Notes: generated by a model not told the origin, from the sequence alone. Shown: positions 44,767 through 64,000, counted from the stretch's first letter. The stretch is 64,000 nucleotides of DNA from an uncultured Gammaproteobacteria bacterium (GCA_964525395.1 CAZGGU010000003.1:2883-66882), one strand, 5' to 3'. Program-made: numbers and translations.

Positions 44767-44768
44767 AA

Positions 44769-45734: not shown

Positions 45735-45735
45735 T

Positions 45736-46731: not shown

Positions 46732-47660
46732 AAACTTTTATTCACCCTTCAGCGATTGTAAAAACAAAAAAAATAGGTGATAAAACTACAATTTGGGCAT
46801 TTTGTAATATTTTAGAAAAAGCCTCAATTGGAGAGAATTGTAATATTAATGATAGGGTTTTCATTGAAAATGATGTTGTAGTAGGAAACAACGTGACAAT
46901 AAAAGTCGGTGTGTCTCTGTGGGATGGATTAAGAGTGGAAGATAATGTTTTTATTGGCCCGAATGCTACTTTTTCTAACGATATTTTCCCAAGAAGTAAG
47001 AAATATCTTAAGAAATATCCTCAAACGGTACTTAAGAAGGGATCTTCTGTCGGAGCAAATTCAACAATTCTCCCAGGGATTACAATTGGTGTAAATTCAA
47101 TGGTAGGGGCAGGTGCAGTTGTAACGAAAGATGTTCCTCAGAATGCAATAGTTGCGGGAAATCCGGCAAGGATAATTGGATATATTGATGCTAAAAATGA
47201 GAAGCTTAAGCAAGTCAATGCTGGAAATGGTCTCAAGAAAAGTAAAAGCCACATAAGAGTTAAAGGTGTTAAGGTCTATTCTCTTCCAGAATTTAGTGAT
47301 ATTAGAGGAGATTTAATTGCTGGAGAATTTCTGGATCAGATCCCTTTTTTAATCAAGAGGTTCTTTATTGTTCACAATGTGCCTAATCAGGAGGTAAGAG
47401 GAGAGCACGCTCATAAAAAATTACAACAATATCTTATCTGCCTGAGTGGCTCTGTAAGTGTAATCGTAGACGATGGTAAAAAATCGGCTGAGATATTGCT
47501 TTCTCCGCTTCAGACAGGGCTGTACATAGGACCAAAAGTGTGGAGCGTGCAGTACAAGTTTAGCAATAACGCTTCTTTGCTTGTTTTGGCTTCAGAAAAG
47601 TACAAATCGGAGGATTATTTAAGAAATTATAATGATTTCTTGGACTTTATTAAAAAATGA
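46728..47660 (+). CDS. WxcM-like bifunctional protein: N-terminal hexapeptide-repeat sugar N-acetyltransferase + C-terminal FdtA-like cupin (dTDP-4-keto-6-deoxyhexose 3,4-ketoisomerase)
   Basis: LbH repeats VVGNNVTIKVGVSL...IGVNSMVGAGAVV. C-terminal RGEHAH motif and cupin strands as in FdtA. Confidence 0.75.
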   Translation: MKTFIHPSAIVKTKKIGDKTTIWAFCNILEKASIGENCNINDRVFIENDVVVGNNVTIKVGVSLWDGLRVEDNVFIGPNATFSNDIFPRSKKYLKKYPQTVLKKGSSVGANSTILPGITIGVNSMVGAGAVVTKDVPQNAIVAGNPARIIGYIDAKNEKLKQVNAGNGLKKSKSHIRVKGVKVYSLPEFSDIRGDLIAGEFLDQIPFLIKRFFIVHNVPNQEVRGEHAHKKLQQYLICLSGSVSVIVDDGKKSAEILLSPLQTGLYIGPKVWSVQYKFSNNASLLVLASEKYKSEDYLRNYNDFLDFIKK

Positions 47661-48763
47661 AAATTAATTATCTTGATATTAAAAGGGCTCATAATTTTAT
47701 TCTTCCTGAGTTAAATAATTCACTTGAGAAGGTAATAAAAAGTGGATTGTTAATTTTAGGTAAAGAGCTAGAGGGGTTTGAGAGAAAATACGCTAAGTTT
47801 ACAGGGACTAAGTATGCTTTAGGAGTTGCTAATGGCTTAGATGCGCTCATACTTTCGTTAATGGCTCTTGATGTTAAGGAAGGAGACGAAGTTATTGTTC
47901 CATCCAATACATATATTGCTACAGTTTTAGCAATTTCTAGAGTTGGTGCAAAACCAATTTTAGTTGAACCAAACAAAGAAACGTATAATATTGATCCGAT
48001 GGAGATAGAGAAAAATATTTCTAAGAAAACAAAGGTAATCATTCCAGTTCATTTATTTGGTCAAGTTGCACAAATGGATGCAATTATGAAGATTGCTATA
48101 AAGCATAAGTTATTTGTCGTGGAGGATAATGCTCAGTCACACGGAGCAAAATATATGAATAAAATGGCAGGTAGCTTTGGGCATATTAATGCTACAAGTT
48201 TTTATCCTGGAAAAAATTTAGGTGCATTAGGGGATGGGGGGATGATCACAACTAATAGTAAATCTTTATATGAAAAAGTGAAGATAATGCGCAATTATGG
48301 TTCAAAAATAAAATACTATAATGAGATCAAAGGTTATAATTCTCGACTGGATGAACTTCAAGCTGCTTTTCTGAAAATAAAACTTAATTATTTGAAATCG
48401 AATAATAAATTAAGAAAAATGAAAGCTGATAAATATCTCTCTGAGTTAAAAAATATAGGAGATATTATTTTACCCATGACAGATTCAAATTCTACGCATG
48501 TTTATCATATATTCAACATCAGAACTAAAAAAAGAGATTCATTGAAGAAGTACTTAGATCAAAATAAGATTGGAAATTTGATTCATTATCCAGTCCCCCC
48601 TCATCTTCAGAAAGCTTATGCCGAATTAGGATTTAAAAAAGGAGATTTCCCCATCGCAGAAGAACTTGCTAGTACTTCGATAAGCCTACCGATTTATCCA
48701 GAATTAACCGATAATGAGCAAAATTTTGTTATATTAAAAATAAAGGAATTTTATGAAAAATAG
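47657..48763 (+). CDS. DegT/DnrJ/EryC1/StrS-family sugar aminotransferase (FdtB-like, PLP-dependent)
   Basis: GVANGLDALILSL...DNAQSHGA...SFYPGKNLGALGDGG, with the Schiff-base Lys present. Confidence 0.85.
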   Translation: MKINYLDIKRAHNFILPELNNSLEKVIKSGLLILGKELEGFERKYAKFTGTKYALGVANGLDALILSLMALDVKEGDEVIVPSNTYIATVLAISRVGAKPILVEPNKETYNIDPMEIEKNISKKTKVIIPVHLFGQVAQMDAIMKIAIKHKLFVVEDNAQSHGAKYMNKMAGSFGHINATSFYPGKNLGALGDGGMITTNSKSLYEKVKIMRNYGSKIKYYNEIKGYNSRLDELQAAFLKIKLNYLKSNNKLRKMKADKYLSELKNIGDIILPMTDSNSTHVYHIFNIRTKKRDSLKKYLDQNKIGNLIHYPVPPHLQKAYAELGFKKGDFPIAEELASTSISLPIYPELTDNEQNFVILKIKEFYEK

Positions 48764-49718
48764 TCCCTTAGTTTCAATTGTTATTCCGACATATAATAGA
48801 AAAATACTTGTTGAAAGATTGATTAAGAGCATATTGAAAAGTACCTATAAAAATCTTGAAATAATTGTGATAGATGACGCATCTGCTGATAATACTCTCG
48901 AATATATATCTTCAAAATTTAGAAAAAATAAAAATATAAAAATTTTTAGAAATAAAATTAATCAGTTTGCTGCAGGAAGTAAAAATATAGGTCAATCAAA
49001 AGCCCAAGGAAAATTTATTGCATTTATAGACGATGATAATGTTGTGGATCAACAAATGATAGAGAAGCTTGTAAATGTTTTGTTAAAAAATGATGTTGTG
49101 GGCGAGGTGGGTCCAATTAACTATAATTTTAATAAAAAAAAATTGGTACTTCTAACTAGATCTACTAGAAATATGTGGACGACCAAAACTAACCATTTAA
49201 GAACTTTTAAGCCGTTTGGGGCTCTTAAAGAATGGGAAGCAGATGATATACCAAATGCTTTCATGGTCAGAGCAGATGTAGTAATTAAAAATAAAATTAA
49301 ATTCAGACCAAAATATGGAATTATGTATGAAGAAAGCGATTATGCATATAGAATCAGAAGGGCTGGCTTTAAAGTTTTGATGGTACGTGAGGCTAAGATA
49401 TATCATGACATTGAGGATTCAAATTCTAAAGAGAATAGTAAAGATTACCTGTATCATTTTATGGAAGATAAAAGAAGACCATTTGTTTTTGCAAGAAACA
49501 GAGTAATTTTTCACTCCTTATATTCAACCCCTTTGCAAAAATTCGTAATTTATTTATTTTGGATTTGGTTTTTCACAGCTTATTACGTTTATAAATTTTT
49601 ATTTTATAATGGATATGGCAATTTTAAGTTTAAAAATAAATTATCTGCAGCAATTAGCTATATAAAAGGGACTTTTAACGGGTTTGGTTTTGCACTTCTG
49701 AAAACCTCTAAAATATGA
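48753..49718 (+). CDS. GT2 glycosyltransferase
   Basis: VSIVIPTYNRKILV...EIIVIDDASADNT...FIDDDNVV. Confidence 0.8.
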   Translation: MKNSPLVSIVIPTYNRKILVERLIKSILKSTYKNLEIIVIDDASADNTLEYISSKFRKNKNIKIFRNKINQFAAGSKNIGQSKAQGKFIAFIDDDNVVDQQMIEKLVNVLLKNDVVGEVGPINYNFNKKKLVLLTRSTRNMWTTKTNHLRTFKPFGALKEWEADDIPNAFMVRADVVIKNKIKFRPKYGIMYEESDYAYRIRRAGFKVLMVREAKIYHDIEDSNSKENSKDYLYHFMEDKRRPFVFARNRVIFHSLYSTPLQKFVIYLFWIWFFTAYYVYKFLFYNGYGNFKFKNKLSAAISYIKGTFNGFGFALLKTSKI

Positions 49719-50527
49719 AGAAATTCAATTATTCTAAGCAGTCAATTTTTAAGTTTTATTTCTTTTATTTATTTTATAAACTATTAATCCCATTTGAAGT
49801 AAAAAAAGGAAAAATAAATATTATTGTAGCGGAGTTTATATGGGTTAGTAGTAAGTTATTTAGATTTAAACCATTCCTCTTTAAAAATTTTACCTCTAAT
49901 TATTATGAAACAAAATTTGGGAAATTTTACATAAATCCAGACTTGATTAGTACAATTGCTGCCTCTCCTTCTTTTGAGAGGAAAGAGATTGAGATTCTTT
50001 TAAAAATGATAGAGTCTGACGTTTCGAATAATAAGAAAATATTATTTATTGATGTTGGGGCATTTTTTGGTCTATATACCGTATTGGTTGGTAATAGATA
50101 TAAAAAATATAAGAATTTGGACATCATGTCATTTGAGCCAGACACATTTTATCTGTCAGATGCCACATTTAATTTAATCAAAAAAAATATAAAGGTTAAC
50201 AATATAAAAAATTCAAAGTTATATCATTTTGGTTTGGGATCAATCAATTCAAACAAAAAAAATAAGAAAGGAATAATTACCAAAAAATTAGACACAGTTT
50301 TAACTAAAAAGATACTAGTTAAATACGATTCAGTATATATAAAAATAGATGTGGACGGTTCAGAAAAAGATGTATTATTGGGTGCAAAGAGCTCTATAAA
50401 AAATGCCAAGGAGATTACACTTCTTATTGAAGATTTTGTTGACCAAAGAATAGTTAAGTATTTATCGAAAGATTTTGAATTTATCTCAAAACCTTCTAGT
50501 TATAACAGTTTTTGGAAAAAGAAATGA
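49715..50527 (+). CDS. FkbM-family methyltransferase (putative sugar O-methyltransferase)
   Basis: IDVGAFFGLYTVLVG...FEPDTFYLSDATFNL resembles the FkbM domain. Confidence 0.55.
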   Translation: MKKFNYSKQSIFKFYFFYLFYKLLIPFEVKKGKINIIVAEFIWVSSKLFRFKPFLFKNFTSNYYETKFGKFYINPDLISTIAASPSFERKEIEILLKMIESDVSNNKKILFIDVGAFFGLYTVLVGNRYKKYKNLDIMSFEPDTFYLSDATFNLIKKNIKVNNIKNSKLYHFGLGSINSNKKNKKGIITKKLDTVLTKKILVKYDSVYIKIDVDGSEKDVLLGAKSSIKNAKEITLLIEDFVDQRIVKYLSKDFEFISKPSSYNSFWKKK

Positions 50528-52812
50528 AGAAGCTATTTTCTCTAAAGTTTTTCAATCTTTTAGCAATAATTTTTATTTTAGCGCTCCCATACTATTTATT
50601 TGATGGAAAGCTATTTTTAGGGGGAGATGACACCAGGCTTCTTTATTCTTATCCAGTTGAATTTGTGAAGAATATAACTTTTTTCTCATGGCATAATGTT
50701 TCAACGACAGGCATTAGTGCAGCAGATCAATATATACTGCCATTTTTATCAGTTTGGGTACTTCTTTCAGCAATCATTCCCTCAAAGTTAATTTTGGCTT
50801 ATCTCGCATTCTCACTCCCTGTGATAGTGGGCATGATTGGTTTTCAAAAATTAGTCAGAGAACTTTTTGAATTAGAAAATAATAATGTCGTGATTTTTCT
50901 TGGTAGCTTATTTTATGTATTTTCTCCAATTCTGATTCAAGATCAGTATTTTATTTTTCTCACAGCAATTTGGCTCATAGGGTTAATTCCTATTAATATC
51001 TATTTATTTATACGGTATTTAAAAACTTCTGATTTTAAATATGTATTTTTTGCCGCCACATTTTGTATATTCTTTTTAGGAATATTATATTCACTTCCAT
51101 GGGTTTTTGGAACATTTTTACCTCTATTTCTTGGACTGATTTTTGTTTCTATATTTTTCAGGAAAAAAGATATTTTATTTTTTATTAAAAAACTATTTAT
51201 TTTTTGTGGATTTATAGGATTAACTCAGTTTTTTTGGATCGCAAATTTTGCATTATCTTATTTTTCGAAGAGTTCAAATAGTTTTGCGCAAAAATTTGTT
51301 TCTCAAGATTTTCTTGACACGTTTACTCCGACTGTATTTACTACTGCAACAGGGAGCATATTTTACCCAATACTCAACTTATTTCATCGACAAATAGCAT
51401 TTGATTTTGAATGGACATTATCAGGAATATTTAATAATTATTATGATAAAACGTATATCTTTAACGTCGTTTTCATTTTTGTTCTTTTTATTGGTCTTTT
51501 ATACTTTCGAAAATATTCAAATAAAAAGAATCAGATTATCTTTATATTTTTATTCATAAGTTTTCTTATCTCTTTGTTTTTATTCACGGTTAACATAGGA
51601 CCTTTAAAAGATTTGTTTACATACTTGAGATATGTTCCCGGATTTATTATGTTTAGGAATTTCTATGACAAATTTGCAATTGGCTACATTCTAATTTACT
51701 CCTTATTAATAACTTACTCATTGTTAATAGTTCATTTGAAATTTAATATAAAATTTTGGCTAGTATTTGGAATATTTTCGCTAGCGATATTCTTTAATTT
51801 TTTACCAATTAAGCAAACTATAAATTCTCCTCTGTGGAAAACTAAGTCAATTTATCGTGTGATAAATATTCCAAATGAATATTTGGAAACTATGAAATTT
51901 GTTAATTCGGAAATTCCTTCTACGAACACAATTTTAAGTGTTCCTTTTGGAGCATCGATCTACACTGTGATAAAAGAAGATAAATCAAATAACGTTTATG
52001 TGGGTGCTTCTCCTGTCAGGATTTTTAGCGGAGTAAATGACATTTCAGGTCATTATTCATTTAATTTTAGTGATCAGGCAAATACAATAGACGCTGTATT
52101 TGTAGATAGAGAATTTGAAAAACTAAAGAAAATTCTTTTTGAATATAACATTAATTATATTCTGGTCACCAAGAATTTACCTGAAGAAGTAAAGAGGGCG
52201 AAGTGGCTTTATGATGAGCAAATGCTTTCTGTTCAGAATCAGGAATTTATAAATGGCATTGCAAATAAAAAGATATACACAAGCGATAATAAAAATTATG
52301 AGATTTATGATCTGAAAAATAAAAATACGATTCTTTCATCAAAAAACATTACATATCAAAAAGTAAGTCCAGTGAAGTATAGATTTTTTATTAGAAATAT
52401 AAATTCACAAAATTTAGACTTTCATGATACATATCATGGTGACTGGAAGATTTTTATCCAAAAAAATCCAAATTTAAATTGGTGTAAAAATAAAAAGTTT
52501 CTCAAAAGTGATGTAGTCGAATGCCAAGAAGCAAAAAAACTATTTGAAATTAATGATTTGAAGTATTTCTTTGAGAAACCAGTTTTTGATGACAAACATA
52601 GTACTGTTTTTGGATACGGCAATAGATGGAGTATAAACAATAAAGAAATTTCTACTAACTATAATCAAGATTTTTATGTAAAAAATAAAGATGGAAGTAT
52701 TGATGCAGAATTCGTTCTTTATTTTAAGCCGCAAACCTATTTTTATTATGGTTTTATTTTCTCATTCGTAGTCTATTTATTAGGAGCAATTTATGTCATC
52801 AAAAAAAGATAA
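50512..52812 (+). CDS. large polytopic membrane protein with C-terminal extracytoplasmic domain (GT-C-like, uncharacterised)
   Basis: 766 aa. About 14 TM in the first 450 aa, then a hydrophilic domain and a terminal TM. Confidence 0.5.
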   Translation: MEKEMKKLFSLKFFNLLAIIFILALPYYLFDGKLFLGGDDTRLLYSYPVEFVKNITFFSWHNVSTTGISAADQYILPFLSVWVLLSAIIPSKLILAYLAFSLPVIVGMIGFQKLVRELFELENNNVVIFLGSLFYVFSPILIQDQYFIFLTAIWLIGLIPINIYLFIRYLKTSDFKYVFFAATFCIFFLGILYSLPWVFGTFLPLFLGLIFVSIFFRKKDILFFIKKLFIFCGFIGLTQFFWIANFALSYFSKSSNSFAQKFVSQDFLDTFTPTVFTTATGSIFYPILNLFHRQIAFDFEWTLSGIFNNYYDKTYIFNVVFIFVLFIGLLYFRKYSNKKNQIIFIFLFISFLISLFLFTVNIGPLKDLFTYLRYVPGFIMFRNFYDKFAIGYILIYSLLITYSLLIVHLKFNIKFWLVFGIFSLAIFFNFLPIKQTINSPLWKTKSIYRVINIPNEYLETMKFVNSEIPSTNTILSVPFGASIYTVIKEDKSNNVYVGASPVRIFSGVNDISGHYSFNFSDQANTIDAVFVDREFEKLKKILFEYNINYILVTKNLPEEVKRAKWLYDEQMLSVQNQEFINGIANKKIYTSDNKNYEIYDLKNKNTILSSKNITYQKVSPVKYRFFIRNINSQNLDFHDTYHGDWKIFIQKNPNLNWCKNKKFLKSDVVECQEAKKLFEINDLKYFFEKPVFDDKHSTVFGYGNRWSINNKEISTNYNQDFYVKNKDGSIDAEFVLYFKPQTYFYYGFIFSFVVYLLGAIYVIKKR

Positions 52813-53755
52813 AAAAATAAAATATTTAATCTGCGCCACTATTTTTGGTTTATTAATTTTTTGGTGGAGCGCATCACTACTTTTTAACGAGAGTATAAGT
52901 TTTAAAGTATTAAGATACCATCATGAATTGTCTGGAGATGTTAATTCAAAAATATTAAAAGGAGATAAAATTAATAGTGAGTTTTATTCTAAGAGGCAAA
53001 ACTTAGGAATAGTAAATATCAAATTCAACAGGTATGTTAAACCTGATTTTGAAAAAGAAGATCAAATTATTTTCAGAATTAAAGAAAAAGGAATGAAAGA
53101 CTGGTTATATGAACAGAAGTATCAATCAGGGCTTTTCCAAGATTCGCCAATTTTTCCATTTGGATTTCCAATAATTACTAACTCAAGCGATAAAGACTAT
53201 CAAATTCAAATAGAATCCTTAAAAGGGAATAACTCTAATGCTTTAAGTTTAAGAAATAAAGATTATGAGGTGGATTACTTTAATACAAATCAAGATATTA
53301 AAAAGAACGTTCCTGAATATTTAATTCTAAAATCAATAAATTCTGTTTTAGATTTGAATTTCTTAATTTATTCGAGTGTTTTTTTGATTCCTTTATTCAT
53401 TTTTCTTTTTTTAATTTCTTTATTTAGGAAAAAAAATAAAAAAAACAAATATTTGCTGTTTGTCTCAATATCTTTAATTTTTATTGATATATTTATTGTT
53501 CCCGTTTATACATTTGGAATTCTGATAATTTCTATTTTAGTTTGGCTTATTAATATGAGAGTTAATAAAATAAGTAGTAATTTTAACTTTACATTTGCAT
53601 TCATTTTGTTTCTCATCTGGATTTTCTTGAAACTATTGAACATAGACGTATATACATCAAAGCTTAATATTTGGACATATGTATTTTTATCCATTGGCGC
53701 AGGAACGCTTTTATTAGAAAGTAAATTAAAAATAAGAAAAAATGCAAAAATTTAA
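52793..53755 (+). CDS. hypothetical membrane-anchored protein
   Basis: N-terminal TM, 180-aa hydrophilic domain, C-terminal 4 TM. Confidence 0.45.
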   Translation: MSSKKDKKIKYLICATIFGLLIFWWSASLLFNESISFKVLRYHHELSGDVNSKILKGDKINSEFYSKRQNLGIVNIKFNRYVKPDFEKEDQIIFRIKEKGMKDWLYEQKYQSGLFQDSPIFPFGFPIITNSSDKDYQIQIESLKGNNSNALSLRNKDYEVDYFNTNQDIKKNVPEYLILKSINSVLDLNFLIYSSVFLIPLFIFLFLISLFRKKNKKNKYLLFVSISLIFIDIFIVPVYTFGILIISILVWLINMRVNKISSNFNFTFAFILFLIWIFLKLLNIDVYTSKLNIWTYVFLSIGAGTLLLESKLKIRKNAKI

Positions 53756-54488
53756 TTACGAAAATAAACAATATCTTAGTAAATTGAATGATTTAGGGGA
53801 AAGTTATTATTCTAAATACATCTCGTTTATTAAGTTCTATTCGAAAAGAAAAGATAAAATTTTGGACGTAGGGTGTGGAACTGGGACAGTACTCTTTAAT
53901 TTGCAAAACAAAGGTTTTGTAAATCTTTATGGTATTGATGTTTCTCGGATGTTTATTAAGGAAGCCCAAAGGAAGAAGCTAAAAAATTTGAAATCTTTTT
54001 CAGGTAAAAAATTTCCTTATAAAAATGAATCATTTAATGTCGTAGGCTCATTTAATGTCTTAGAGCATACCCAGAATCCAAACTTTTTCATAAGCGAACA
54101 GATAAGGCTTCTTAAACCGGGTGGTAAATTAATAATAGCCTGTCCCAATTTCCTGTCGATCATGCTTATCAATAATTGGCATCCAAGATTGAGAGGTTTT
54201 AGGCAAAAATCAAAAAATTTTGTTTGTGTCCTTAAGAAAGTGCTTGATAAAAATTCTGAATTTGAAAAAATAAAACCGATTAAAATGAAAATCTTTAAAT
54301 ATGATAGCGATGCGATAGTCATTACTAATCTTATCGATTTAAAAAGACAGTTGAAAAAAGAAAAATGTGAAATAATATACGAGAGTGGTTTTATAAAAAT
54401 GGATTCATATATAGTTAAGATTTTGAATTTGGTTCCCTTGATAAGATATGTAAGTCCCTCCTGCTTTATAGTCGCTCAAAAAAAATGA
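53742..54488 (+). CDS. class I SAM-dependent methyltransferase
   Basis: ILDVGCGTGTVLFNL motif I. LKPGGKLIIACPNF. Confidence 0.7.
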   Translation: MQKFNYENKQYLSKLNDLGESYYSKYISFIKFYSKRKDKILDVGCGTGTVLFNLQNKGFVNLYGIDVSRMFIKEAQRKKLKNLKSFSGKKFPYKNESFNVVGSFNVLEHTQNPNFFISEQIRLLKPGGKLIIACPNFLSIMLINNWHPRLRGFRQKSKNFVCVLKKVLDKNSEFEKIKPIKMKIFKYDSDAIVITNLIDLKRQLKKEKCEIIYESGFIKMDSYIVKILNLVPLIRYVSPSCFIVAQKK

Positions 54489-56497
54489 AAAATATTTCTA
54501 ACTTGATTCAGCTCTCAATAATCATCGTACTTATTTTAATCGTATTTAGAGCATGGATTTTTGGCAGTATTATTTCAGCGGGGGATAATTGGTATTACTA
54601 TCCTTCGATGTACAGTAATCATTTTCTAAATCCTTACTCTTGGTATACTCAAGCAACGGCAAATGGATTGGGCGGTCAGGGATTCGCTTATATAAATACA
54701 TACATTGTTGTTGGATTCCTTTTAGAAATTGCTAAATTATTTCATCTTTCTTGGGATCTGACTTCAAAATTAGGCTTATATATTCTCTTTTTAATCATCT
54801 CCTCAATTTCATCAATATTTTTAATTAAAAAACTTTTTCCTGAAAATAGAGTTTGGATACTTGCCCCATTTATTTTTATTTTTAATACCTATGTACTAAT
54901 GACAGTGGGCGGGGGACAAATAATAACCGCACTTTCATATTCACTTGTTCCATTTTCTATTTATTCTGTAATTTCACTAATTGATCTAGAGAAGAGAAAT
55001 CTAAAATTAAAATTTGTTTTTTTAACATCAATATTATTTTTTCTTCAAGCAATTTTAGATTTAAGAATTGCATTTGTCACAACTATTGCTGTTTTTGTCT
55101 ATTTAATAATTTCTTTTATTCAAAATAAATTTAAATTAAATTTAATTAATTCTATTTACTTCGTATGTGCATTTTTATTGTTTGCATTGATGTGTTCTTA
55201 CTGGTTAATTCCAATTCTTTTATATGGAATAAATCCAATCGAACAGTTAGGCGTAGATTATAGTTCAGCGACAATTGTAAAATTTTTAAGTTTTGCAAAA
55301 TTAGAAAATTCATTAGGACTTATGCATCCATATTGGCCAGAAAATATTTTTGGAAAAATTGGATTTATGAAAGCAGAATTTCTATTTCTTCCAATTGCGG
55401 CATTTTCCTCATTATTATTTCTTGATAAAGAAAAAAGAAAATATATTTTATTTTTTGCACTGATTGGGCTTTTCGGTATATTTTTAGGAAAAGGAGCGAG
55501 CGAGCCATTAGGTGGTGTTTATTTATTTTTATTTGAACACGTCCCAGGGTTTCAATTATTCAGGGATTCAATAAAATGGTATGTTTTAATTGCAATCTCA
55601 TTTTCAATTCTCATTCCTTATTCCCTAGACAAGATTTCTTTATTGATTGAAGAAAAAATTAATAAGAAAAACTTTTACTTATTAGTTGAAATTCTATTTA
55701 TTATTTACATTTGCATTTTTCTTAGACCTGCTTTTATGAATCAATTAAGTGGAACATTTAAGGAAAGAATAATTCCTAAAGAATATATTTCTCTAAATAA
55801 TTTTTTATCATCTCAAAATAATTTTTACAGAACGCTTTGGGTTCCTAATACTATGCTGTTAGGTTATTATTCAAATATGAATCCTCAGATTTCAGCAAGA
55901 GATTATTTCAAAGAATATTCCCAAGAAAAATTGTATAAAGTTATTGCGAAAAATGAATCAAATAACTCTTTAGATTATGCTTCTGTTAAATATGTGATTA
56001 TTCCGAAAGATACAGAAAAGGAAATATTTTTAACTGACAGAGAATTTGATAAAGAAAAATATAAAAATGCAGTTAAATCTTTAGATAAAATTTCATGGTT
56101 GGAAAAGGTGAAAGCATTTGGAGACATAGTTGTTTATGAAAATAAAAATTATAAAGATCATATTTGGTGTGATTGTGATGCAAAGATTAATTATCAATTT
56201 GTAAATCCAACTTTATATAAAATTTCAGTTAAAAATTATAAGAAAGGGGATAAAATAATTTTCTCCGAAGCATATGATTCTTTATGGACAATTAATGATG
56301 GTAAAAATATAAAAAATTCAGAAAGATTTGAAAAAAGCCTTAACAGTTTTATATTGCCTGGAGATGGAAATTATACGATTGAATATTCTGCGCAAAAGTT
56401 GGTAGATAAAAGTTTAATAATAAGTTTAATCGCAGTATTTTTAACAATTAGCGGCCTAACATTTTTAGTAATAAAAAATAAAAATGAAAATAAATAA
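54485..56497 (+). CDS. large polytopic membrane protein with extracytoplasmic domain (GT-C-like, uncharacterised)
   Basis: 670 aa. About 13 TM, then a soluble domain and a terminal TM. Architecture parallels 50512-52812. Confidence 0.5.
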   Translation: MKNISNLIQLSIIIVLILIVFRAWIFGSIISAGDNWYYYPSMYSNHFLNPYSWYTQATANGLGGQGFAYINTYIVVGFLLEIAKLFHLSWDLTSKLGLYILFLIISSISSIFLIKKLFPENRVWILAPFIFIFNTYVLMTVGGGQIITALSYSLVPFSIYSVISLIDLEKRNLKLKFVFLTSILFFLQAILDLRIAFVTTIAVFVYLIISFIQNKFKLNLINSIYFVCAFLLFALMCSYWLIPILLYGINPIEQLGVDYSSATIVKFLSFAKLENSLGLMHPYWPENIFGKIGFMKAEFLFLPIAAFSSLLFLDKEKRKYILFFALIGLFGIFLGKGASEPLGGVYLFLFEHVPGFQLFRDSIKWYVLIAISFSILIPYSLDKISLLIEEKINKKNFYLLVEILFIIYICIFLRPAFMNQLSGTFKERIIPKEYISLNNFLSSQNNFYRTLWVPNTMLLGYYSNMNPQISARDYFKEYSQEKLYKVIAKNESNNSLDYASVKYVIIPKDTEKEIFLTDREFDKEKYKNAVKSLDKISWLEKVKAFGDIVVYENKNYKDHIWCDCDAKINYQFVNPTLYKISVKNYKKGDKIIFSEAYDSLWTINDGKNIKNSERFEKSLNSFILPGDGNYTIEYSAQKLVDKSLIISLIAVFLTISGLTFLVIKNKNENK

Positions 56498-57461
56498 TTC
56501 TGAAATTTTAATTACAGGGGGTGCTGGATTTATTGGTAGTAGTCTTGCTGATGAATTAGTAAAGCAAGGAGCAACGGTTACCATTCTTGATGCAATGATT
56601 GCCCCATATGGTGGCAATATGTTTAATATCAAACAAATAAAAAATAAAGTTAATTTTATTAAAGGAGATGTGAGAAATCACAAAGCTGTGGAAAAAGCAG
56701 TCAAAGGAAAAGATTTTGTTTTTCACCTGGCTGGACAGACAGGCAGAAATATTTCTATGGAGAACCCTATTCTAGATACCGAAATAAATATAATAGGGAC
56801 ATTAAATGTAATTGATGGTATTAGAAGGCAAATGAAAAAACCTAAACTTATTTTTGCTGGAAGTAGGGGAGCTTGTGGAATGCCAACATATTTACCAGTT
56901 AATGAGAAACATCCAGATAACCCTAGGGATGTCTATGGAATTAATAAAATGTCAGCTGAAAAAATGTGTCTACTTTTAGGAAAAGAAAACGATTTTGAAG
57001 TAGTATCCTTGCGACTTAATAATGTTTACGGACCAAGATGCCAAATAAAAAGTAACCATTATGGAACTATTAATTTGTTTGTTTCTTACGCATTGCAGGG
57101 AAAAGTAATGCCAATTTATGGAGATGGTTTACAAACAAGAGATTATGTGTACGTAACAGACGTAGTGAATGCTTTTATTAGTTCTATGAATCCAAAAGCA
57201 AATAATAATATGTATTATGTGGGAACTGGAGTTCCTACTTCGTTACTGGAAATAGTAGGGATAATTCAAGAAAAGATTCCTGATGCCAAATTTAAAAAGG
57301 TACCTTTTCCAAAAGAACTTAAAAGTGTAGATTTTCCAGAGTTTTATTCCGACTCATCGTTTATAGAAAAACAACTTGGTTGGAAACCAAAAATTAATAT
57401 AGAAAAAGGTATTGAAGAGACTATAGTGTTTTATAAAGAGAACTTGAAATACTATTTATGA
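56484..57461 (+). CDS. NAD-dependent nucleotide-sugar epimerase/dehydratase (extended SDR)
   Basis: ILITGGAGFIGSSLADELVKQGATVTILD. Catalytic YGINK. Confidence 0.8.
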   Translation: MKINNSEILITGGAGFIGSSLADELVKQGATVTILDAMIAPYGGNMFNIKQIKNKVNFIKGDVRNHKAVEKAVKGKDFVFHLAGQTGRNISMENPILDTEINIIGTLNVIDGIRRQMKKPKLIFAGSRGACGMPTYLPVNEKHPDNPRDVYGINKMSAEKMCLLLGKENDFEVVSLRLNNVYGPRCQIKSNHYGTINLFVSYALQGKVMPIYGDGLQTRDYVYVTDVVNAFISSMNPKANNNMYYVGTGVPTSLLEIVGIIQEKIPDAKFKKVPFPKELKSVDFPEFYSDSSFIEKQLGWKPKINIEKGIEETIVFYKENLKYYL

Positions 57462-57679
57462 AACCACAAGATATATTATTCTTAATAATTCTAGGTATAC
57501 TTTTATACAAAAGAGATTCTAGGTTGTTTGTCTGGGCAGGACTCATCTCTCTTTTAATCTCGATCCCTTTATTCGCAAAATGGATTTTCTTTACTGCTGA
57601 GAGATTTACTCTATATGCATTTGTTTTTCTTTTAATCGCGGTTCTTTTCAATTTAGCTAAAATTAGGCATAATAAATGA
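57458..57679 (+). CDS. small two-TM membrane protein (73 aa)
   Basis: Two hydrophobic helices. Start overlaps the upstream stop. Confidence 0.4.
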   Translation: MKPQDILFLIILGILLYKRDSRLFVWAGLISLLISIPLFAKWIFFTAERFTLYAFVFLLIAVLFNLAKIRHNK

Positions 57680-57682
57680 ATG

Positions 57683-57708
57683 AGTCCCGTTAGGATTTTA
57701 ATGGGACT
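57683..57708 (+). other. hairpin AGTCCC-N14-GGGACT containing the conserved TGAGTCCCGTT element
   Basis: The same 11-mer occurs at 21699-21709, also immediately 5' of a GT4 gene. Confidence 0.35.
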
Positions 57709-57747
57709 ATTTATTTATGTTGTTATTGAAAGGAAAAATCTAACGGG

Positions 57748-58293
57748 ATGAAAATCGGAATTGATATTAGCCAGCTTGCTTATCCAAATACAGGCGTAGC
57801 TAATTATCTCGAAAATCTTATTGATTCATTGTTGAAGGTGGACTCAAAGAATGAATATGTTCTTTTCTATTCATCGATGAGAAAAAATTTACAATTTACA
57901 ATTTTCAATTTTCAATCAAATCCAAATGTTTCAATTAAAAAATTTAAATTACCACCGACTTTATTAAACCTGTTATGGAATAAATTACATATTCTGCCAA
58001 TTGAAAGAATTATTGGTCCAGTAGACTTGTTTATCACTTCCGACTGGACAGAGCCTCCTGCGAAAGCTAAGAAGGCTACGATCATTTATGACATGATTGT
58101 TTATAAAAATCCTGAAGAAACAGCCAAAAGTATTGTAGAGACTCAAAAGAGAAAACTAAAATGGGTTAAGAAAGAATCAGACATAATATTTGCCATCTCT
58201 AAATCTACTAAGAAAGATATTGAAGAAATATTAGGAATTGATTCATCAAAAATTAAAGTAATTTATCCAGGGCTGAATAAATTAACTAGTTAA
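57748..58293 (+). pseudogene. GT4 glycosyltransferase N-terminal-domain-only fragment (C-terminal catalytic half missing)
   Basis: MKIGIDISQL... ends at ...KVIYPGLNKLTS, the inter-domain linker position in the intact neighbouring GT4 genes. Confidence 0.45.
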
Positions 58294-58324: not shown

Positions 58325-58714
58325 ATGAAGATTACCAAATATGAGGAGTTGGAAATTTGGAATCTCAGCATCGAGATTGCATTAAAAGTTTATGAATTAA
58401 CTAGCAAGGGGAAATTCATGAAAGTTTATGGCTTAAGAGATCAAATTCGGCGTGCATCTGTTTCAATCAGTTCAAATATTGCAGAAGGTTTTGAAATGAA
58501 TAATAACAACGATTTTATTAGATTTTTGAGAATAGCTAAGAGTTCGGCTGGAGAAGTTAGAAGTCAACTTTATATTTCGTATGAGCTTGGTTATATTAAT
58601 TCAAGAGAATATAATGAATTAACCGATAAATTAATAACTTTATCCTCACAGAACGGAAAATTTATTAGTTATCTTTTGAGCAAGAAGAATAATAAAGAAT
58701 TTTTGAACCGATGA
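58325..58714 (+). CDS. four-helix-bundle protein (so-called 23S rRNA intervening-sequence protein family)
   Basis: 129 aa. YEELEIWNLSIEIALKVYELTSK...DQIRRASVSISSNIAEGF...SAGEVRSQLYIS typical of that family. Confidence 0.75.
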   Translation: MKITKYEELEIWNLSIEIALKVYELTSKGKFMKVYGLRDQIRRASVSISSNIAEGFEMNNNNDFIRFLRIAKSSAGEVRSQLYISYELGYINSREYNELTDKLITLSSQNGKFISYLLSKKNNKEFLNR

Positions 58715-59882: not shown

Positions 59883-60430
59883 AAAGAGTAATGAGAAGAG
59901 GAACGACATTAATTCGTGAATTCGAAAATATGATTATGGCTTGGAGTGGCCATGTTCCATCGCACCATTTCCGCCGTTTTATTTATAGACTTGGGGGAAT
60001 GAGAATTGGTAAAGGTTCTACGATTCACTGCGGTGCTAAGTTTTACAACGCTCATAAAATAAGAATTGGGTCTGACACTATTATAGGCGAAGATGCAGTG
60101 CTTGATGGGCGAGATATGCTTGTGATTGGAAGCCATGTAGATATTGCTTCAGAAGTAATGATTTATAATGCTGAGCATGATGTAAACGATGCATCTTTCT
60201 CAGCAATTACTGGAGCTGTTGAGGTAGAAGATTATGTGTTCATTGGTCCGCGAGCAATAATTCTCCCAGGAGTAAAGATTGGAAGAGGTGCCGTAATAGG
60301 CGCTGGGGCAGTAGTCACTAAAGATGTAGAGCCGTTTAAAATAGTAGGTGGTGTGCCAGCAAAAGAAATTGGTGAGAGAACGAATAAAGATCCTCATTAC
60401 AGACTGGGAAGAGCTGCTTGGTTTAGATAA
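59879..60430 (+). CDS. hexapeptide-repeat (left-handed beta-helix) sugar O-acetyltransferase, WbbJ/WcaF-like
   Basis: IGEDAVLDGRDMLVIGSHVDIASEVMIYN...IGPRAIILPGVKIGRGAVIGAGAVVTKDV. GC looks higher than the flanks. Confidence 0.8.
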   Translation: MKRVMRRGTTLIREFENMIMAWSGHVPSHHFRRFIYRLGGMRIGKGSTIHCGAKFYNAHKIRIGSDTIIGEDAVLDGRDMLVIGSHVDIASEVMIYNAEHDVNDASFSAITGAVEVEDYVFIGPRAIILPGVKIGRGAVIGAGAVVTKDVEPFKIVGGVPAKEIGERTNKDPHYRLGRAAWFR

Positions 60431-61302
60431 TGAAATTATCAATTGTTATTCTTAGCTACAATACTCCGGATTTGATAAAAAATTGCTTAGATTCTCTCGA
60501 AAAATTCTACAAAGATGATTTAGGGAAAAATATTGAAGCTATTGTGGTAGATAATAAATCAGAAAAAGAGAACTTAGACAAAACTAAAAAATTTGTTTCA
60601 AGTAAAAAATTTGCATATTTTATCGAAAACAGTGAAAATGCAGGTTTTGGAAAAGGCTGTAATTTAGGCGTAGCTAAAGCGAAAGCAGACTATGTTTTAT
60701 TTTTAAATTCCGATGCAGAAGTAATTGACTCTAATCTGTTAGAAATGTCAGGTTTCCTTGATAAGAATCATGATATTGGAATCTTGGGTGGGAAAATTTT
60801 AAATCCTGATAAATCTCCTCAGAAATCTGCTGGCAAATTTTATAATCTATTAAATTTTTTAATTATGATTTTAGGCGGAGAAAAATTTGGTTTGCTTAGA
60901 AAAAGTCCAGAAAAAATTGAAAAAGTTGATTGGGTAAGTGGCGCATTTATGATGGTAAATAAAAAAATGTTTAATCTGATTGGTGGATTTGATAAGAATA
61001 TTTTTATGTACATGGAGGATATGGAGATTTCTTTTAAGGCAAAAAAGAAGGGAATTGAAACCTACTTTTACCCAGATGCGAAAGTAATTCATAAAGAATA
61101 TGGAAGCAGTAATCGTGGATTTGCCATTGTAAATATTTATAAAGGACTTTTATATTTTTACAAAAAATATAAAAGTCCTTGGGAATACGGGATTGTTAAA
61201 TTATGTTTATATACCAAAGCAATGCTTATTTACTTATTGGGGAAATTGACTAATAATAGTTATTACGTAAAAACATACGGGGAAGCATTAAAGATTATAT
61301 GA
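60430..61302 (+). CDS. GT2 glycosyltransferase
   Basis: LSIVILSYNTPDLI...EAIVVDNKSEKEN...LFLNSDAEV...YMEDMEISF. Confidence 0.8.
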   Translation: MKLSIVILSYNTPDLIKNCLDSLEKFYKDDLGKNIEAIVVDNKSEKENLDKTKKFVSSKKFAYFIENSENAGFGKGCNLGVAKAKADYVLFLNSDAEVIDSNLLEMSGFLDKNHDIGILGGKILNPDKSPQKSAGKFYNLLNFLIMILGGEKFGLLRKSPEKIEKVDWVSGAFMMVNKKMFNLIGGFDKNIFMYMEDMEISFKAKKKGIETYFYPDAKVIHKEYGSSNRGFAIVNIYKGLLYFYKKYKSPWEYGIVKLCLYTKAMLIYLLGKLTNNSYYVKTYGEALKII

Positions 61303-64000
61303 AAAAAGGTTTAGCTTGGCTTTGGGACAATATTTTATTTATCGAAACAATCTTTCTTTTAGTTTTTATTCCCCTTTTTCCCAAAATCCCAATTTTAGAT
61401 GTGAGAAACACATGGGTTTATATTCGTGCTGAAGATTTTATAGTTTTCTTTGTATTAATCTCATGGTTAATCTTGCTAATTAAGAATAAAGTTACCCTCA
61501 GAACCCCAATCACATTTCCAATACTCATTTTTTGGATTATTGGTCTTATCGCAACTGTTCATGGAGTTCTCATTATTTTTCCAGAAATTGCCAATGCCTA
61601 TCCGAATGTGGCATTTCTCAGCCTGCTTCGACATATCGAATATATGAGCATTTTCTTCATCGCTTTTGCTGGAATTAGAGACAAAAATCAGCTTAAGTGG
61701 GTTATTGCAGCTTTATTTGTAACTCTTCTTGGAGTCATTCTTTATGGATTTGGACAGAAATTCCTTGGATTTCCAGCTTATTTAACGATGAATGAGGAAT
61801 TTGCTAAAGGAATTCCTATTAAACTATCTGAACTTTCGCGTGTTCCTTCTACTTTCGCAGGACATTATGATTTAGCAGCTTATCTAGTATTAATAATTCC
61901 AATTATGGCAAGTTTATTCTTTGGAGTTAAAAATTATATAGCAAAAGCTTCATTTGTAGTTATCTCATTTTTGGGATTAATTCTTCTATTTATGACGGTT
62001 TCAAGAGTTTCATTCGCTGTTCTTTTTATCGCGCTTTTTGCAGTTTTATTTTTCCAAAAAAGAAAATTGGCACTTTTGGCCATTCCTTTGGGAATATTAA
62101 TGATCGTAGGCTTATTAACATTCCAGTCTTCTCTTACTGACAGATTTAAAAGTACAGTTTCAGAAGTGGATGTTTTAGTGGATGCAAAAACAGGAGATTC
62201 TCTCGGCCATGTGAGATTTGTAAACAAGGAAGAGCTAAAAGACAAAGTAGTTCTGCAAAGAAGAGTAAAAGATAAGACTGAACTAGAAGTAGCACTTAGT
62301 GGAGAAGATCCAAATGCTTATTCCACAACATCGGCTATTTTACCGTTTAAATATATTCCTGAAGAAGTGCCTTTGGTAACAGCAGTGAATATTTCAACCG
62401 GCGAAAGTCTTTCTCAAGGAACAGGCTATACAAATTTGTATCTTTCTCCTGTGGTAAAGCGTTTAGGAAATTTTTATTATGAACTTCCACCTGATTTTAA
62501 AGCCTCTCCTTCAGCGCAGATTCTAGTATTACATGGTGACTTTATTGTAAAGCGCGCGTCTGCTTATGATTTATCATTTACCACTCGTTTCCAGGGTGAA
62601 TGGCCAAATGCAATCCAAGCATTTAAGAGAAATCTTTTGGTGGGCAGTGGATATGGGTCAGTTAGTTTGGCAGTAGATAATAACTATTTAAGAATTTTAG
62701 GTGAAATTGGAGTTCTTGGATTCGTTTCATTTTTGTTAATCTTTATTTCCCTGGGAATTTATATAAGAAAAGTATTCTCTGATATCGATTCTATATTGGT
62801 TAGAAGTTACATAATTGGATTTGGGGCAGGTCTTATTGGTTTAGCATTAAATGCTACTTTGATCGACGTTTTCGAAGCATCTAAGATAGCATTTCTTCTT
62901 TGGACACTCACTGGTGTAACATTTGGAATATTAGTTTTCTATCAGAAGAAAAGTTTTAGTCTCAAAGATGAACTTATCAGAGTAGCCACTTCTTCTTACG
63001 CTATTTTAATTTATCTTTTCCTGTTTACTTTTGTAATTTTCGTACCAACCCTAGGAAATAATTTCGTGGGTGATGATTTCACATGGCTTAGATGGGTAGC
63101 TGATTGCAAAAATGCATGTGGTCCGGTTCATTCGCTTTCAAATTATCTGATTAATGCTGATGGATTTTTCTATCGACCGGGCACTAAAGCTTATTTCTAT
63201 TTCATGTATAACTCATTTTGGCTTAATCAAGTTGTTTATCATTTGGTTTCATTAGTCTTACATTTCGTGGTCGCAGCTCTATTTTATTTACTTGCTAGAA
63301 AAATTCTAAAAAATAATTTGCTTGCAACAATCGCTGCATTCTTGTTCGTAATTATGAGTGGATCTGCTGAAGCAGTACTTTGGGTTTCTTCAACGGGATA
63401 TTTATTTAATGCAGTTTTCGGTTTGATCGGTCTACTTTCATTTATCTATTGGGACGAGAAAAAGAAAATATATTGGTTAATAATTTCGATCGTTTCATTT
63501 TCTGCTGCGATGCTCTTTCATGAATTAGGTGTAGTTCTACCGTTCCTAGTCCCGGTTTACCTTTGGTATAAAGATTTTTCTATTAAAGGTTTGAAAAATA
63601 TTGTGAAGAGATGGGATGTATTAATCCTCTTGGTGCCAATGATTTTATATATTCTTCTTAGATTTATCGCTGGAAGTCATTGGTTTAACGGAGATTATAG
63701 CTATGATCCTCTTATGCTTCCGTTTAACTTTATAGGTAATTCAATTGGATACCTAATGCTTAGTACAGTAGGATCAATGTCGTTGTCTATCTATGAAAGC
63801 ATTAGGATGGTTGCAAGACAAAATATACTTGCAATGCTAGTGATTATTCCAATATTCGTTGCTGGAGTTTATTTAGCAATTCGATATGGCAAGAAATATA
63901 TTACAAATGAAGAAAAGAAGACGATAGTATTTGGAATTTTGTTCTTTATCGTGGCACTTTTGCCGTTCATTGCTCTGGGAAATATAACCTCAAGATATAG
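61299..64000 (+). CDS. Wzy/O-antigen-ligase-like polymerase domain fused to a C-terminal GT-C-like membrane domain; partial, runs off the window end
   Basis: Stop-free frame for at least 900 codons from an ATG overlapping the previous stop (ATGA); not in the supplied ORF track. Wzy_C-like motif GSGYGSVSLAVDNNYLRILGEIGVLG. Large hydrophilic loop around aa 280-440. Second module with DDFTWLRW...YHLVSLVLHFVVAALFYLLA. Confidence 0.7.
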   Translation, partial: MKKGLAWLWDNILFIETIFLLVFIPLFPKIPILDVRNTWVYIRAEDFIVFFVLISWLILLIKNKVTLRTPITFPILIFWIIGLIATVHGVLIIFPEIANAYPNVAFLSLLRHIEYMSIFFIAFAGIRDKNQLKWVIAALFVTLLGVILYGFGQKFLGFPAYLTMNEEFAKGIPIKLSELSRVPSTFAGHYDLAAYLVLIIPIMASLFFGVKNYIAKASFVVISFLGLILLFMTVSRVSFAVLFIALFAVLFFQKRKLALLAIPLGILMIVGLLTFQSSLTDRFKSTVSEVDVLVDAKTGDSLGHVRFVNKEELKDKVVLQRRVKDKTELEVALSGEDPNAYSTTSAILPFKYIPEEVPLVTAVNISTGESLSQGTGYTNLYLSPVVKRLGNFYYELPPDFKASPSAQILVLHGDFIVKRASAYDLSFTTRFQGEWPNAIQAFKRNLLVGSGYGSVSLAVDNNYLRILGEIGVLGFVSFLLIFISLGIYIRKVFSDIDSILVRSYIIGFGAGLIGLALNATLIDVFEASKIAFLLWTLTGVTFGILVFYQKKSFSLKDELIRVATSSYAILIYLFLFTFVIFVPTLGNNFVGDDFTWLRWVADCKNACGPVHSLSNYLINADGFFYRPGTKAYFYFMYNSFWLNQVVYHLVSLVLHFVVAALFYLLARKILKNNLLATIAAFLFVIMSGSAEAVLWVSSTGYLFNAVFGLIGLLSFIYWDEKKKIYWLIISIVSFSAAMLFHELGVVLPFLVPVYLWYKDFSIKGLKNIVKRWDVLILLVPMILYILLRFIAGSHWFNGDYSYDPLMLPFNFIGNSIGYLMLSTVGSMSLSIYESIRMVARQNILAMLVIIPIFVAGVYLAIRYGKKYITNEEKKTIVFGILFFIVALLPFIALGNITSRY

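Follow-up and report, generated by a model that had tools for sequence, protein, structure and literature searches.

Two kinds of membrane enzymes, Wzy_C-superfamily proteins and glycosyltransferases of the GT-C type, provide the closest described parallels to the protein analyzed here. Ligases and O-oligosaccharyltransferases (O-OTases) of the first kind share an H-[NSQ]-x9-G-xx-[GTY] motif, and Wzy_C-family proteins also operate in bacteria without an outer membrane, as exemplified by the polymerase TuaE of Bacillus subtilis and the Gram-positive S-layer O-OTases WsaB and WsfB, WsaB being a protein O-OTase; none of these is known to carry a fused GT-C. In the GtrA/GtrB/GtrC and CsbB/GtcA/YfhO systems, a separate GT-C decorates a Wzy- or ABC-made polymer at the outer face from a polyprenyl-phosphate-linked sugar donor. 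How a Wzy-type polymerase or ligase hands its product over to the next enzyme is poorly understood, in part because such partners tend to be distinct membrane proteins of low conservation. Wzy, WaaL, PglL and SEDS proteins are grouped into a single superfamily (PMC10030265); in Escherichia coli WaaL, residues R215, R288 and H338 are essential and are conserved in PglL, where the His is H349 (PMC3643930). Here we describe a gene at the downstream edge of a 64,000-nucleotide stretch of DNA deposited as an uncultured Gammaproteobacteria bacterium (GCA_964525395.1 CAZGGU010000003.1:2883-66882; hereafter the window), in which a Wzy_C-type module (N-module) is followed in frame by a GT-C-like module (C-module). 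The gene is a genuine, conserved fusion, and its product is probably a two-enzyme membrane protein with 23 transmembrane (TM) helices found in the Microgenomates, a branch of the candidate phyla radiation (CPR). The sequence comparisons and structure models make it rather probable that two outer-face steps of surface-glycan assembly reside on this one polypeptide, the N-module acting as a polymerase or transferase and the C-module as a GT-C.

A stop-free frame of 900 codons runs on the plus strand from ATG 61299 to the last nucleotide of the window. A reading made earlier from the DNA alone (the sequence-only reading) had described it as a frame of at least 900 codons overlapping the stop of the preceding family 2 glycosyltransferase (GT2) gene, and had ascribed its absence from the supplied list of open reading frames (ORFs) to the open window edge; translation bears out both points, as the two genes share an ATGA overlap and the frame runs off the end of the window. 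The overlap suggests translational coupling of the GT2 and fusion genes, and a Shine–Dalgarno-like purine-rich run, GGGGAAG, lies ≈14 nt 5′ of the fusion ATG. A protein search identified a database protein of 1,066 residues (P0001) that is 100% identical to all 900 residues of the frame and completes the ORF with the remaining 166 codons and stop, which lie beyond the window edge; coordinates computed from P0001 project the end of the gene to ≈64499. Residues past 900 are thus those of P0001, and the gene downstream in this genome is inferred from synteny in relatives.

The same search returned more than 1,300 relatives. Among the best 120 of these, nearly all are 1,049 to 1,089 residues long (one has 952), they originate from metagenome-assembled genomes (MAGs) of Levybacteria, Roizmanbacteria and the “Patescibacteria group,” and where a name is given it is “hypothetical protein” or “O-antigen ligase family protein.” When one genome per species was scanned, 578 related stretches came to light, and 79 of the 80 loci retrieved from them encode the full-length protein in a single unbroken ORF of ≈3.1 to 3.2 kb, which excludes, for the family, the frameshift or two-gene split that the sequence-only reading had considered. 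The hosts of these 80 loci are Levy-, Roizman-, Gottesman- and Woesebacteria, all belonging to the Microgenomates branch, and identity to the query across orders is 41 to 86%. About one-third of the genome records with a Microgenomates-type cassette (L003–L082) are titled “uncultured Gammaproteobacteria bacterium,” and one (L064) is titled “Pacearchaeota archaeon”; such titles are probably placeholder or mis-binned labels. One MAG (H52-bin050_1) harbors two paralogous full fusions (L036 and L070); both share 53 to 54% identity with the query and precede PMT_2 and GT4 genes.

A full-length AlphaFold2 model built from a 45-sequence alignment has a predicted local distance difference test score (pLDDT) of 78.7 and a predicted template modeling score (pTM) of 0.80, the latter of which suggests a defined relative placement of both modules. 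Secondary structure assigned by DSSP, together with hydropathy, gives 23 predicted TM helices (12 + 11), with the N terminus inside and the C terminus outside; short inside loops contain 25 Lys and Arg residues versus 6 in short outside loops. By predicted location, 108 invariant residues are extracytoplasmic, 63 intramembrane and 3 cytoplasmic; in both modules, the conserved polar positions fall on the outer face. We place the module boundary near residue 553, because TM11 and TM12 (residues 499–548) still belong to the N-module and its stand-alone relatives stop right after TM12, at ≈residue 552. A second polytopic module is therefore present as the sequence-only reading had proposed, but it starts at ≈553 rather than at ≈500. 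The large hydrophilic loop noted in the same reading is likewise there, between TM9 and TM10, and is predicted to lie outside the membrane; its length is 187 residues (276–462) rather than ≈160, including a β-rich insert of ≈140 residues. The median length of this insert is 149 residues in the fusions and 99 residues (range 3–171) in N-only relatives.

The proposal that the N-terminal half resembles Wzy_C/O-antigen ligases holds up when relatives are considered. We assembled an alignment (A3) of 53 members, mostly stand-alone relatives that are 30 to 44% identical to the N-module, 52 of which match Wzy_C (PF04932) at E ≤ 0.01 (best E = 5e-14). A Foldseek search with the full model retrieves WaaL (7tpg_B; probability 1.00, TMt 0.58) and RodA (6pl5), and both matches are gone when the C-module is searched alone. 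When the A3 profile is compared with PDB sequences, a single weak match is found (9rmk, “Oligosaccharyltransferase,” E = 0.034), in which the pattern EWP.A...F..N.L.G.GY......DN.YLR.LGE.G..G is aligned with EWNKALAAFQSAPIFGHGW...HSHNIVLQLLAEMGISG and D460 stands opposite the His of HSHN. The N-module shares with WaaL (7TPG), PglL-type enzymes and many Wzy proteins its 12 TM helices, the large TM9–TM10 outer loop, Arg residues conserved at the outer boundary of the membrane, and an operon that also encodes repeat-unit glycosyltransferases and the initiating phosphoglycosyl transferase. Shared, too, is the signature (E)W..A...F...P..G.G ... xN x9 G xx G, which runs up to TM10. In the query this signature, quoted in the sequence-only reading, is GSGYGSVSLAVDNNYLRILGEIGVLG (residues 449–474), with the spacing D460-N461-x9-G471-xx-G474. 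The N-module departs from that superfamily in its β-rich loop insert, the fused GT-C module, a host without lipopolysaccharide (LPS) or an outer membrane, and a Pfam score below the cut-off, and from WaaL and PglL in placing D460 where H338 and H349 stand.

This substitution is a property of the family, with Asp at the D460 position in 224 of 227 homologs, so that the catalytic His of WaaL and PglL is replaced at the position defined by the profile alignment. R430, R465 and E469 each recur in 225 of the 227 sequences and R236 in 211; R236, R282, R430 and R465 are conserved at the outer face and would be candidate counterparts of WaaL R215 and R288. The PglL_A motif (PF15864), defined in PMC3643930, was not matched in a Pfam scan of the fusion protein at E ≤ 1. 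The N-module thus belongs to the Wzy_C superfamily, within which it falls into a distinct “Asp-type” clade; judged by the catalytic His of those enzymes, it is neither a WaaL nor a PglL.

A further set of long N-module relatives (1,098–1,266 residues; representative are P0199, P0212, P0236, P0242, P0248, P0255, P0257, P0258, P0265 and P0267) has another C-terminal extension, consisting of three to five extra TM helices and a large soluble region. In P0255, the one member scanned for it, the soluble region is a Metallophos-like phosphoesterase. We considered and rejected the presence of a GT-C in these proteins, which have the extra TM helices and soluble region instead. Since the extension differs from that of the fusions described here, the Asp-type Wzy_C clade has therefore been joined to different outer-face partners more than once.

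The C-module (residues 553–1066, 514 residues) was modeled alone with a pLDDT of 82.8 and a pTM of 0.84, and GT-C enzymes account for 20 of its top 21 Foldseek matches (probability 0.96–1.00), rank 19 being a chain of the GPI-transamidase complex. The GT-C matches comprise PglB, STT3, Pmt4, Pmt1/2, AftA, AftB/D, ALG3/6 and EmbB (probability 0.82–1.00), with E = 7e-5 for PglB (6gxc) and TMq 0.46 and TMt 0.47 for Pmt4 (9i5k); ArnT (5f15) is the top match of the full model. At the sequence level, hhalign relates the C-module to the five PMT_2 paralogs of the window (86.3%, E = 4.7e-6) and to 69 PMT_2 proteins encoded as downstream neighbors in other genomes (90.1%, E = 1.6e-6), with N-module controls at 2.4% and 0.2%, respectively; both profile alignments are collinear over TM2–TM6. 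These comparisons agree with the GT-C assignment made in the sequence-only reading. Pfam PMT_2 (PF13231) was weakly matched (E = 6.9e-4) by 1 of 21 family members scanned singly and not by the query protein. Searches of PDB sequences gave nothing with a C-module alignment (A2) and only chance matches with a full-length alignment (A1), and hhalign found no relationship of either module to the PTPS_related and YfhO proteins of the window or to ORFs 31671, 50512, 52793 and 54485 (probabilities ≤1.1%).

Conserved residues of the C-module cluster on the outer face. The acidic pair D592–D593, which opens the DDFTWLRW motif (residues 592–599) quoted in the sequence-only reading together with YHLVSLVLHF... 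(from residue 647), is found six residues past C-module TM1 and is present in 162 (D592) and 166 (D593) of 168 homologs; the PMT_2 paralogs of the window have (W/T/F)DE at the same place. E691, E742, R788, D799 and R899 are each found in at least 162 of the 168 homologs, and R626, K630, H648 and R836 are conserved to a degree similar to the acidic pair. A C-terminal α/β domain (≈residues 975–1066, ≈90–115 residues) predicted to lie outside harbors an invariant W..FPVG motif. The C-module resembles GT-C(A) enzymes of the PMT_2/GT39–GT83 type (Pmt1/2/4, ArnT) and oligosaccharyltransferases (OSTs; PglB, STT3) in being polytopic, in having TM1 followed by a long first outer loop with short helices and an initial acidic pair, and in its outside C terminus. 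Unlike these enzymes, it has DD(F)TW in place of the DE of the window's PMT_2 paralogs, it lacks a MIR domain and the OST motif WWDxG (no WWD occurs in P0001, and WWD is found in the C-terminal half of only 2 of 120 relatives), it is limited to 11 TM helices and a small C-terminal domain, and it occurs in the available sequences only in fusion with a Wzy_C module or encoded immediately 3′ of one. From the models and profile comparisons, we conclude that the C-module represents a divergent, previously unannotated GT-C(A) family, closest to PMT_2/ArnT-type enzymes. The features of the gene are collected in Table 1.

Table 1. Features of the fusion gene and its upstream neighbor, in window coordinates
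Feature	Position	Strand	Basis
Fused gene, first 900 of 1,066 codons	61299..64000	+	Translation; 100% identity to P0001
ATGA start/stop overlap of the fusion gene with the upstream GT2 gene (60430–61302, stop TGA)	61299..61302	+	Sequence
N-module, residues 1–552, predicted 12-TM Wzy_C-superfamily module (WaaL/PglL/Wzy, SEDS-like)	61299..62954	+	Pfam in relatives; Foldseek; stand-alone relatives
Large extracytoplasmic loop TM9–TM10, residues 276–462 (187 residues), with invariant R282, R430, D460 and N461	62124..62684	+	AlphaFold2 secondary structure; topology
β-rich insert within the TM9–TM10 loop, residues 287–424 (≈140 residues)	62157..62570	+	DSSP strands; AlphaFold2 model
Wzy_C signature GSGYGSVSLAVDNNYLRILGEIGVLG, residues 449–474 (D460 at 62676–62678)	62643..62720	+	Profile alignment to PDB 9rmk
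Cytoplasmic basic linker QKKSFSLKDELIRVATS between the modules, residues 549–565	62943..62993	+	Topology; Lys/Arg count; stand-alone relatives
C-module, residues 553–900 of 553–1066, predicted 11-TM GT-C(A) fold with a small C-terminal α/β domain beyond the window	62955..64000	+	AlphaFold2; Foldseek; hhalign
DDFTWLRW, residues 592–599, acidic pair opening the first outer loop after C-module TM1; candidate catalytic motif	63072..63095	+	Conservation; topology
Conserved outer loop of the C-module, residues 792–842, SHW..GDYSY..LPFN..GN, with invariant D799, Y800, N810 and R836	63672..63824	+	Conservation; topology
Upstream soluble GT2, 290 residues, no TM helix	60430..61302	+	Pfam; synteny

The genomic context of the fusion is conserved as well. 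The cassette runs in the order short GT4-N protein, GT4, WcaF-like hexapeptide acetyltransferase, GT2, fusion, PMT_2 and GT4; the GT2 gene immediately precedes the fusion in 64 of 73 loci, and the PMT_2 gene immediately follows it in 63 of 68. On two long contigs (L001 and L002), these are followed further downstream by GT4 genes, a ManC-like nucleotidyltransferase, a WbaP/exopolysaccharide (EPS)-type polyprenyl glycosylphosphotransferase (249 bits) and a DUF4012 protein. Two Wzx flippase genes (18252–19700 and 37418–38701) are found in the same glycosylation island, 23 to 43 kb from the fusion. This gene content is that of a Wzx/Wzy-type pathway for a polyprenyl-pyrophosphate-linked heteropolysaccharide. 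The GT2 adjacent to the fusion is nearest, below cut-off, to the EpsD and rhamnosyltransferase families of NCBIfam; we considered it as a GtrB/DPM1-like synthase of a polyprenyl-phosphate sugar for the C-module, and rejected this role on account of its lack of a TM helix and of those nearest families.

In the mechanism that we favor, a polyprenyl-pyrophosphate-linked repeat unit would be made in the cytoplasm and flipped across the membrane, where the N-module would transfer it. For this transfer, we give Wzy-type polymerization about an even chance and ligation to a lipid, cell-wall or protein acceptor a clearly smaller one, polymerization being favored because the cassette resembles an EPS/colanic acid-type locus and the ligase-type His is absent. 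R236, R430 and R465 would hold the pyrophosphate, with D460 standing in for the WaaL/PglL His. The C-module, via its DD motif, would then draw on a polyprenyl-phosphate-linked donor to append a sugar to that polymer or to its acceptor, a role like that of the GT-C in the GtrA/GtrB/GtrC and CsbB/GtcA/YfhO systems; unlike in those systems, the GT-C is fused, and neither a GtrB-like synthase nor a GtrA-like flippase was identified beside the fusion gene. The fusion, or adjacent overlapping genes in a rare split form, may permit direct hand-over of product between the two sites.

Several observations weigh against this assignment of two glycan-assembly activities. The query reaches a Wzy_C score of 15.7 bits over its full length and 19.5 bits over residues 1–500, both under the cut-off of 31.7, and the C-module has no Pfam or NCBIfam match, NCBIfam returning nothing for the whole protein either. 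Searches with PF04932 and GT-C models, advocated in the sequence-only reading, therefore succeed for Wzy_C through relatives, while the query itself stays sub-threshold and the C-module is without a Pfam match. Foldseek E-values for the full model and the C-module are modest (1e-3 to 7e-5), with TM-scores of 0.37 to 0.52 and large root-mean-square deviations (rmsd). The equivalence of D460 with the WaaL His derives from one weak profile alignment (E = 0.034) and motif spacing, and that of the DD pair with the GT-C catalytic Asp from topological position. As to partners, no dedicated polyprenyl-phosphate-sugar synthase was recognized adjoining the fusion, where the GT2 is soluble, and no Wzz or other polysaccharide co-polymerase (PCP) family of Pfam was found within ±10 kb in L001 and L002 or among the scanned window ORFs between 10.7 and 61.3 kb, unannotated neighbors including the DUF4012 protein being unclassified in this respect. 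Finally, the nearest Wzx gene is more than 20 kb upstream. Because no Wzz/PCP is recognized near the gene and Wzx is this distant, “polymerase” is not established over “ligase.”

That the N-module instead acts as an en bloc ligase or O-OTase (WaaL/PglL/WsaB-like) is a real but lesser possibility. It would transfer a finished polyprenyl-pyrophosphate-linked glycan to a lipid, to the cell wall or to a protein, for instance a pilin or S-layer protein, and the C-module would install or modify the acceptor sugar in a “prime and ligate” arrangement. This alternative stays alive because a recognizable Wzz is missing from the cassette and the family is unusually conserved, its 41 to 86% identity across orders being atypical of serotype-variable Wzy polymerases; moreover, the only solved structures that the N-module resembles are the ligase WaaL and the oligosaccharyltransferase 9rmk, and the island may contain its classical Wzy elsewhere, namely the 388-residue, 10-TM ORF at 36255–37421 beside Wzx. 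Set against this are the near-universal Asp at the position of the His that is essential in WaaL and PglL (PMC3643930), the missing PglL_A match and the likeness of the cassette to EPS or colanic acid-type Wzy-dependent loci. CPR bacteria are, moreover, reported to lack a Gram-negative envelope, and a literal WaaL or “O-antigen ligase” role is unlikely because these cells have neither LPS nor an outer membrane (PMC6744442).

We regard as unlikely a second alternative, in which the N-module polymerizes and the C-module is an OST-like enzyme (PglB/STT3) that attaches the polyprenyl-pyrophosphate-linked polymer to its final acceptor. The best Foldseek matches of the C-module are indeed OSTs (PglB 6gxc, 5ogl and 3rce, and STT3 structures), and its conserved extracytoplasmic C-terminal α/β domain with the W..FPVG motif recalls the C-terminal outer domain of OSTs, but this domain has only ≈90 to 115 residues and the WWDxG motif is missing. 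Sequence-level homology points instead to PMT_2-type enzymes, which use polyprenyl-monophosphate sugar donors, and among the structures Pmt4 superposes with the smallest rmsd and ranks first by mutual TM-score, with ArnT at the top of the full-model search.

A catalytically dead C-module, serving as a scaffold, chain-length ruler or export partner of the Wzy_C module, is improbable. It would agree with the failure of Pfam GT-C models to recognize the C-module, with the missing Wzz and with the finding that the C-module is never seen away from its Wzy_C partner; yet the acidic pair, placed where GT-C enzymes canonically have it, and a dozen charged residues of the outer face are near-invariant in relatives down to ≈30% identity, which marks an active site rather than a scaffold.

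Apparent exceptions to this co-occurrence were traced individually. In the three loci in which the C-module is called separately and upstream DNA is available (L083, L084 and L087), it is immediately preceded by a Wzy_C gene of that cassette. The L084 gene is split at an A6 run, and removal of one A gives back a fused ORF of 999 residues; the frame of L087 is interrupted within TM12; and L083 comprises two overlapping genes with a linker-like segment in each, which may be a genuine two-gene form. Apparent stand-alone C-modules P0139, P0170 and P0173 begin inside TM12, and P0191 is truncated by a contig end. The idea that stand-alone C-modules constitute an independent family was downgraded in view of these TM12 starts, the homopolymer split and the contig end, which leave only L083 plausible. 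The two modules were never seen apart in loci with upstream DNA available. The remaining alternative, in which the long ORF is an assembly or sequencing merger of two neighboring genes, could draw on these rare split calls but is as good as excluded, because 79 of 80 independent genomes carry the frame unbroken and Wzy_C is directly upstream in the three split loci, to which are added more than 100 listed database proteins of 1,050 to 1,090 residues and the one-base correction of L084, where the split looks like the error.

Returning to the favored reading of a Wzy_C-type polymerase or transferase joined to a GT-C, a bolder version can be put forward only tentatively: the protein may by itself form an extracytoplasmic assembly line, which would make it the first example in nature of Wzy_C and GT-C modules acting in cis on one polyprenyl-linked glycan, which would be polymerized and then decorated or ligated. 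The Asp-type clade might then use a base-catalyzed, SEDS/GT-C-like mechanism, with the C-module as a new GT-C family and obligate partner of that clade. Each module derives from a known superfamily; the combination, the clade-wide Asp-for-His replacement and a Pfam-invisible GT-C family that occurs only with a Wzy_C partner are undescribed in the literature searched, in which we found nothing relevant on a Wzy_C/PMT_2 or O-antigen ligase/GT-C fusion in CPR bacteria. The lipocone paper does not treat this fusion family (PMC12419801).

The fusion does not overturn current concepts. As a conserved covalent linkage, it would offer a ready-made stoichiometric complex of a polymerase or ligase with a GT-C for structural and biochemical work, and the C-module would add a new GT-C family, so far without annotation, whose candidate catalytic residues stand out clearly. 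An Asp-for-His clade of Wzy_C proteins is relevant to how catalysis works across the superfamily. The gene also appears to mark a core, vertically conserved surface-glycan pathway in the Microgenomates, bacteria whose envelope chemistry is essentially unknown and whose lifestyle depends on cell–cell contact, and could allow re-annotation of hundreds of database entries that now read “hypothetical” or “O-antigen ligase family protein.”

The fusion lies in an uninterrupted, same-strand glycosylation island on the plus strand that extends to the end of the window (≈10678–64000, >50 kb), an unusually large share of a small CPR genome. The island harbors ≈10 GT-C genes (five PMT_2, two PTPS_related, YfhO and GT87), the two Wzx genes, more than 10 GT2 and several GT4 genes, two DegT aminotransferases, FdtA, methyltransferases and epimerases. 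Its G+C content is 0.26 to 0.29 over most of 44001–58000 (0.335 at 46–48 kb) and 0.30 to 0.40 elsewhere in the window, and this low-G+C stretch may be a more variable or acquired part of the island. The DUF4012 protein (≈655–666 residues) ends the cassette after the initiating phosphoglycosyl transferase (L001:21688–23204 and L002:21516–23177); this family is enriched in CPR and Gram-positive bacteria and has been noted in capsular polysaccharide and EPS clusters (PMC6744442). It could be a chain-length regulator or envelope auxiliary and as such the missing Wzz-like partner.

Upstream of the fusion, a “23S rRNA-intervening-sequence protein” gene (58325–58714, plus strand; PF05635, 120.7 bits) lies between the short GT4-N ORF and the GT4 gene. 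The corresponding gene is found just upstream of GT4 in 5 of the 80 related loci (L003, L017, L040, L053 and L081) and just upstream of the short GT4-N ORF in L084 (375–794), so that its placement within the glycan operon recurs. The short ORF itself (57748–58293, plus strand, 181 residues) is fragment-like in having an N-terminal GT4 domain (Glyco_transf_4) only. Most related loci, including L001, L002 and L084, keep this gene separate, at 174 to 189 residues, upstream of a full GT4 gene, and the ORF may not be a pseudogene but one subunit of a split GT4.

Finally, the island contains four polytopic plus-strand ORFs without a Pfam family, at 50512–52812 (766 residues, ≈13 TM), 54485–56497 (670 residues, ≈11 TM), 31671–33386 (571 residues, ≈8 TM) and 36255–37421 (388 residues, ≈10 TM), none of which is related to either fusion module by hhalign. 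The last of these, directly upstream of the Wzx gene at 37418–38701, could be a classical Wzy, and the large ones may be further unannotated GT-C-like enzymes.

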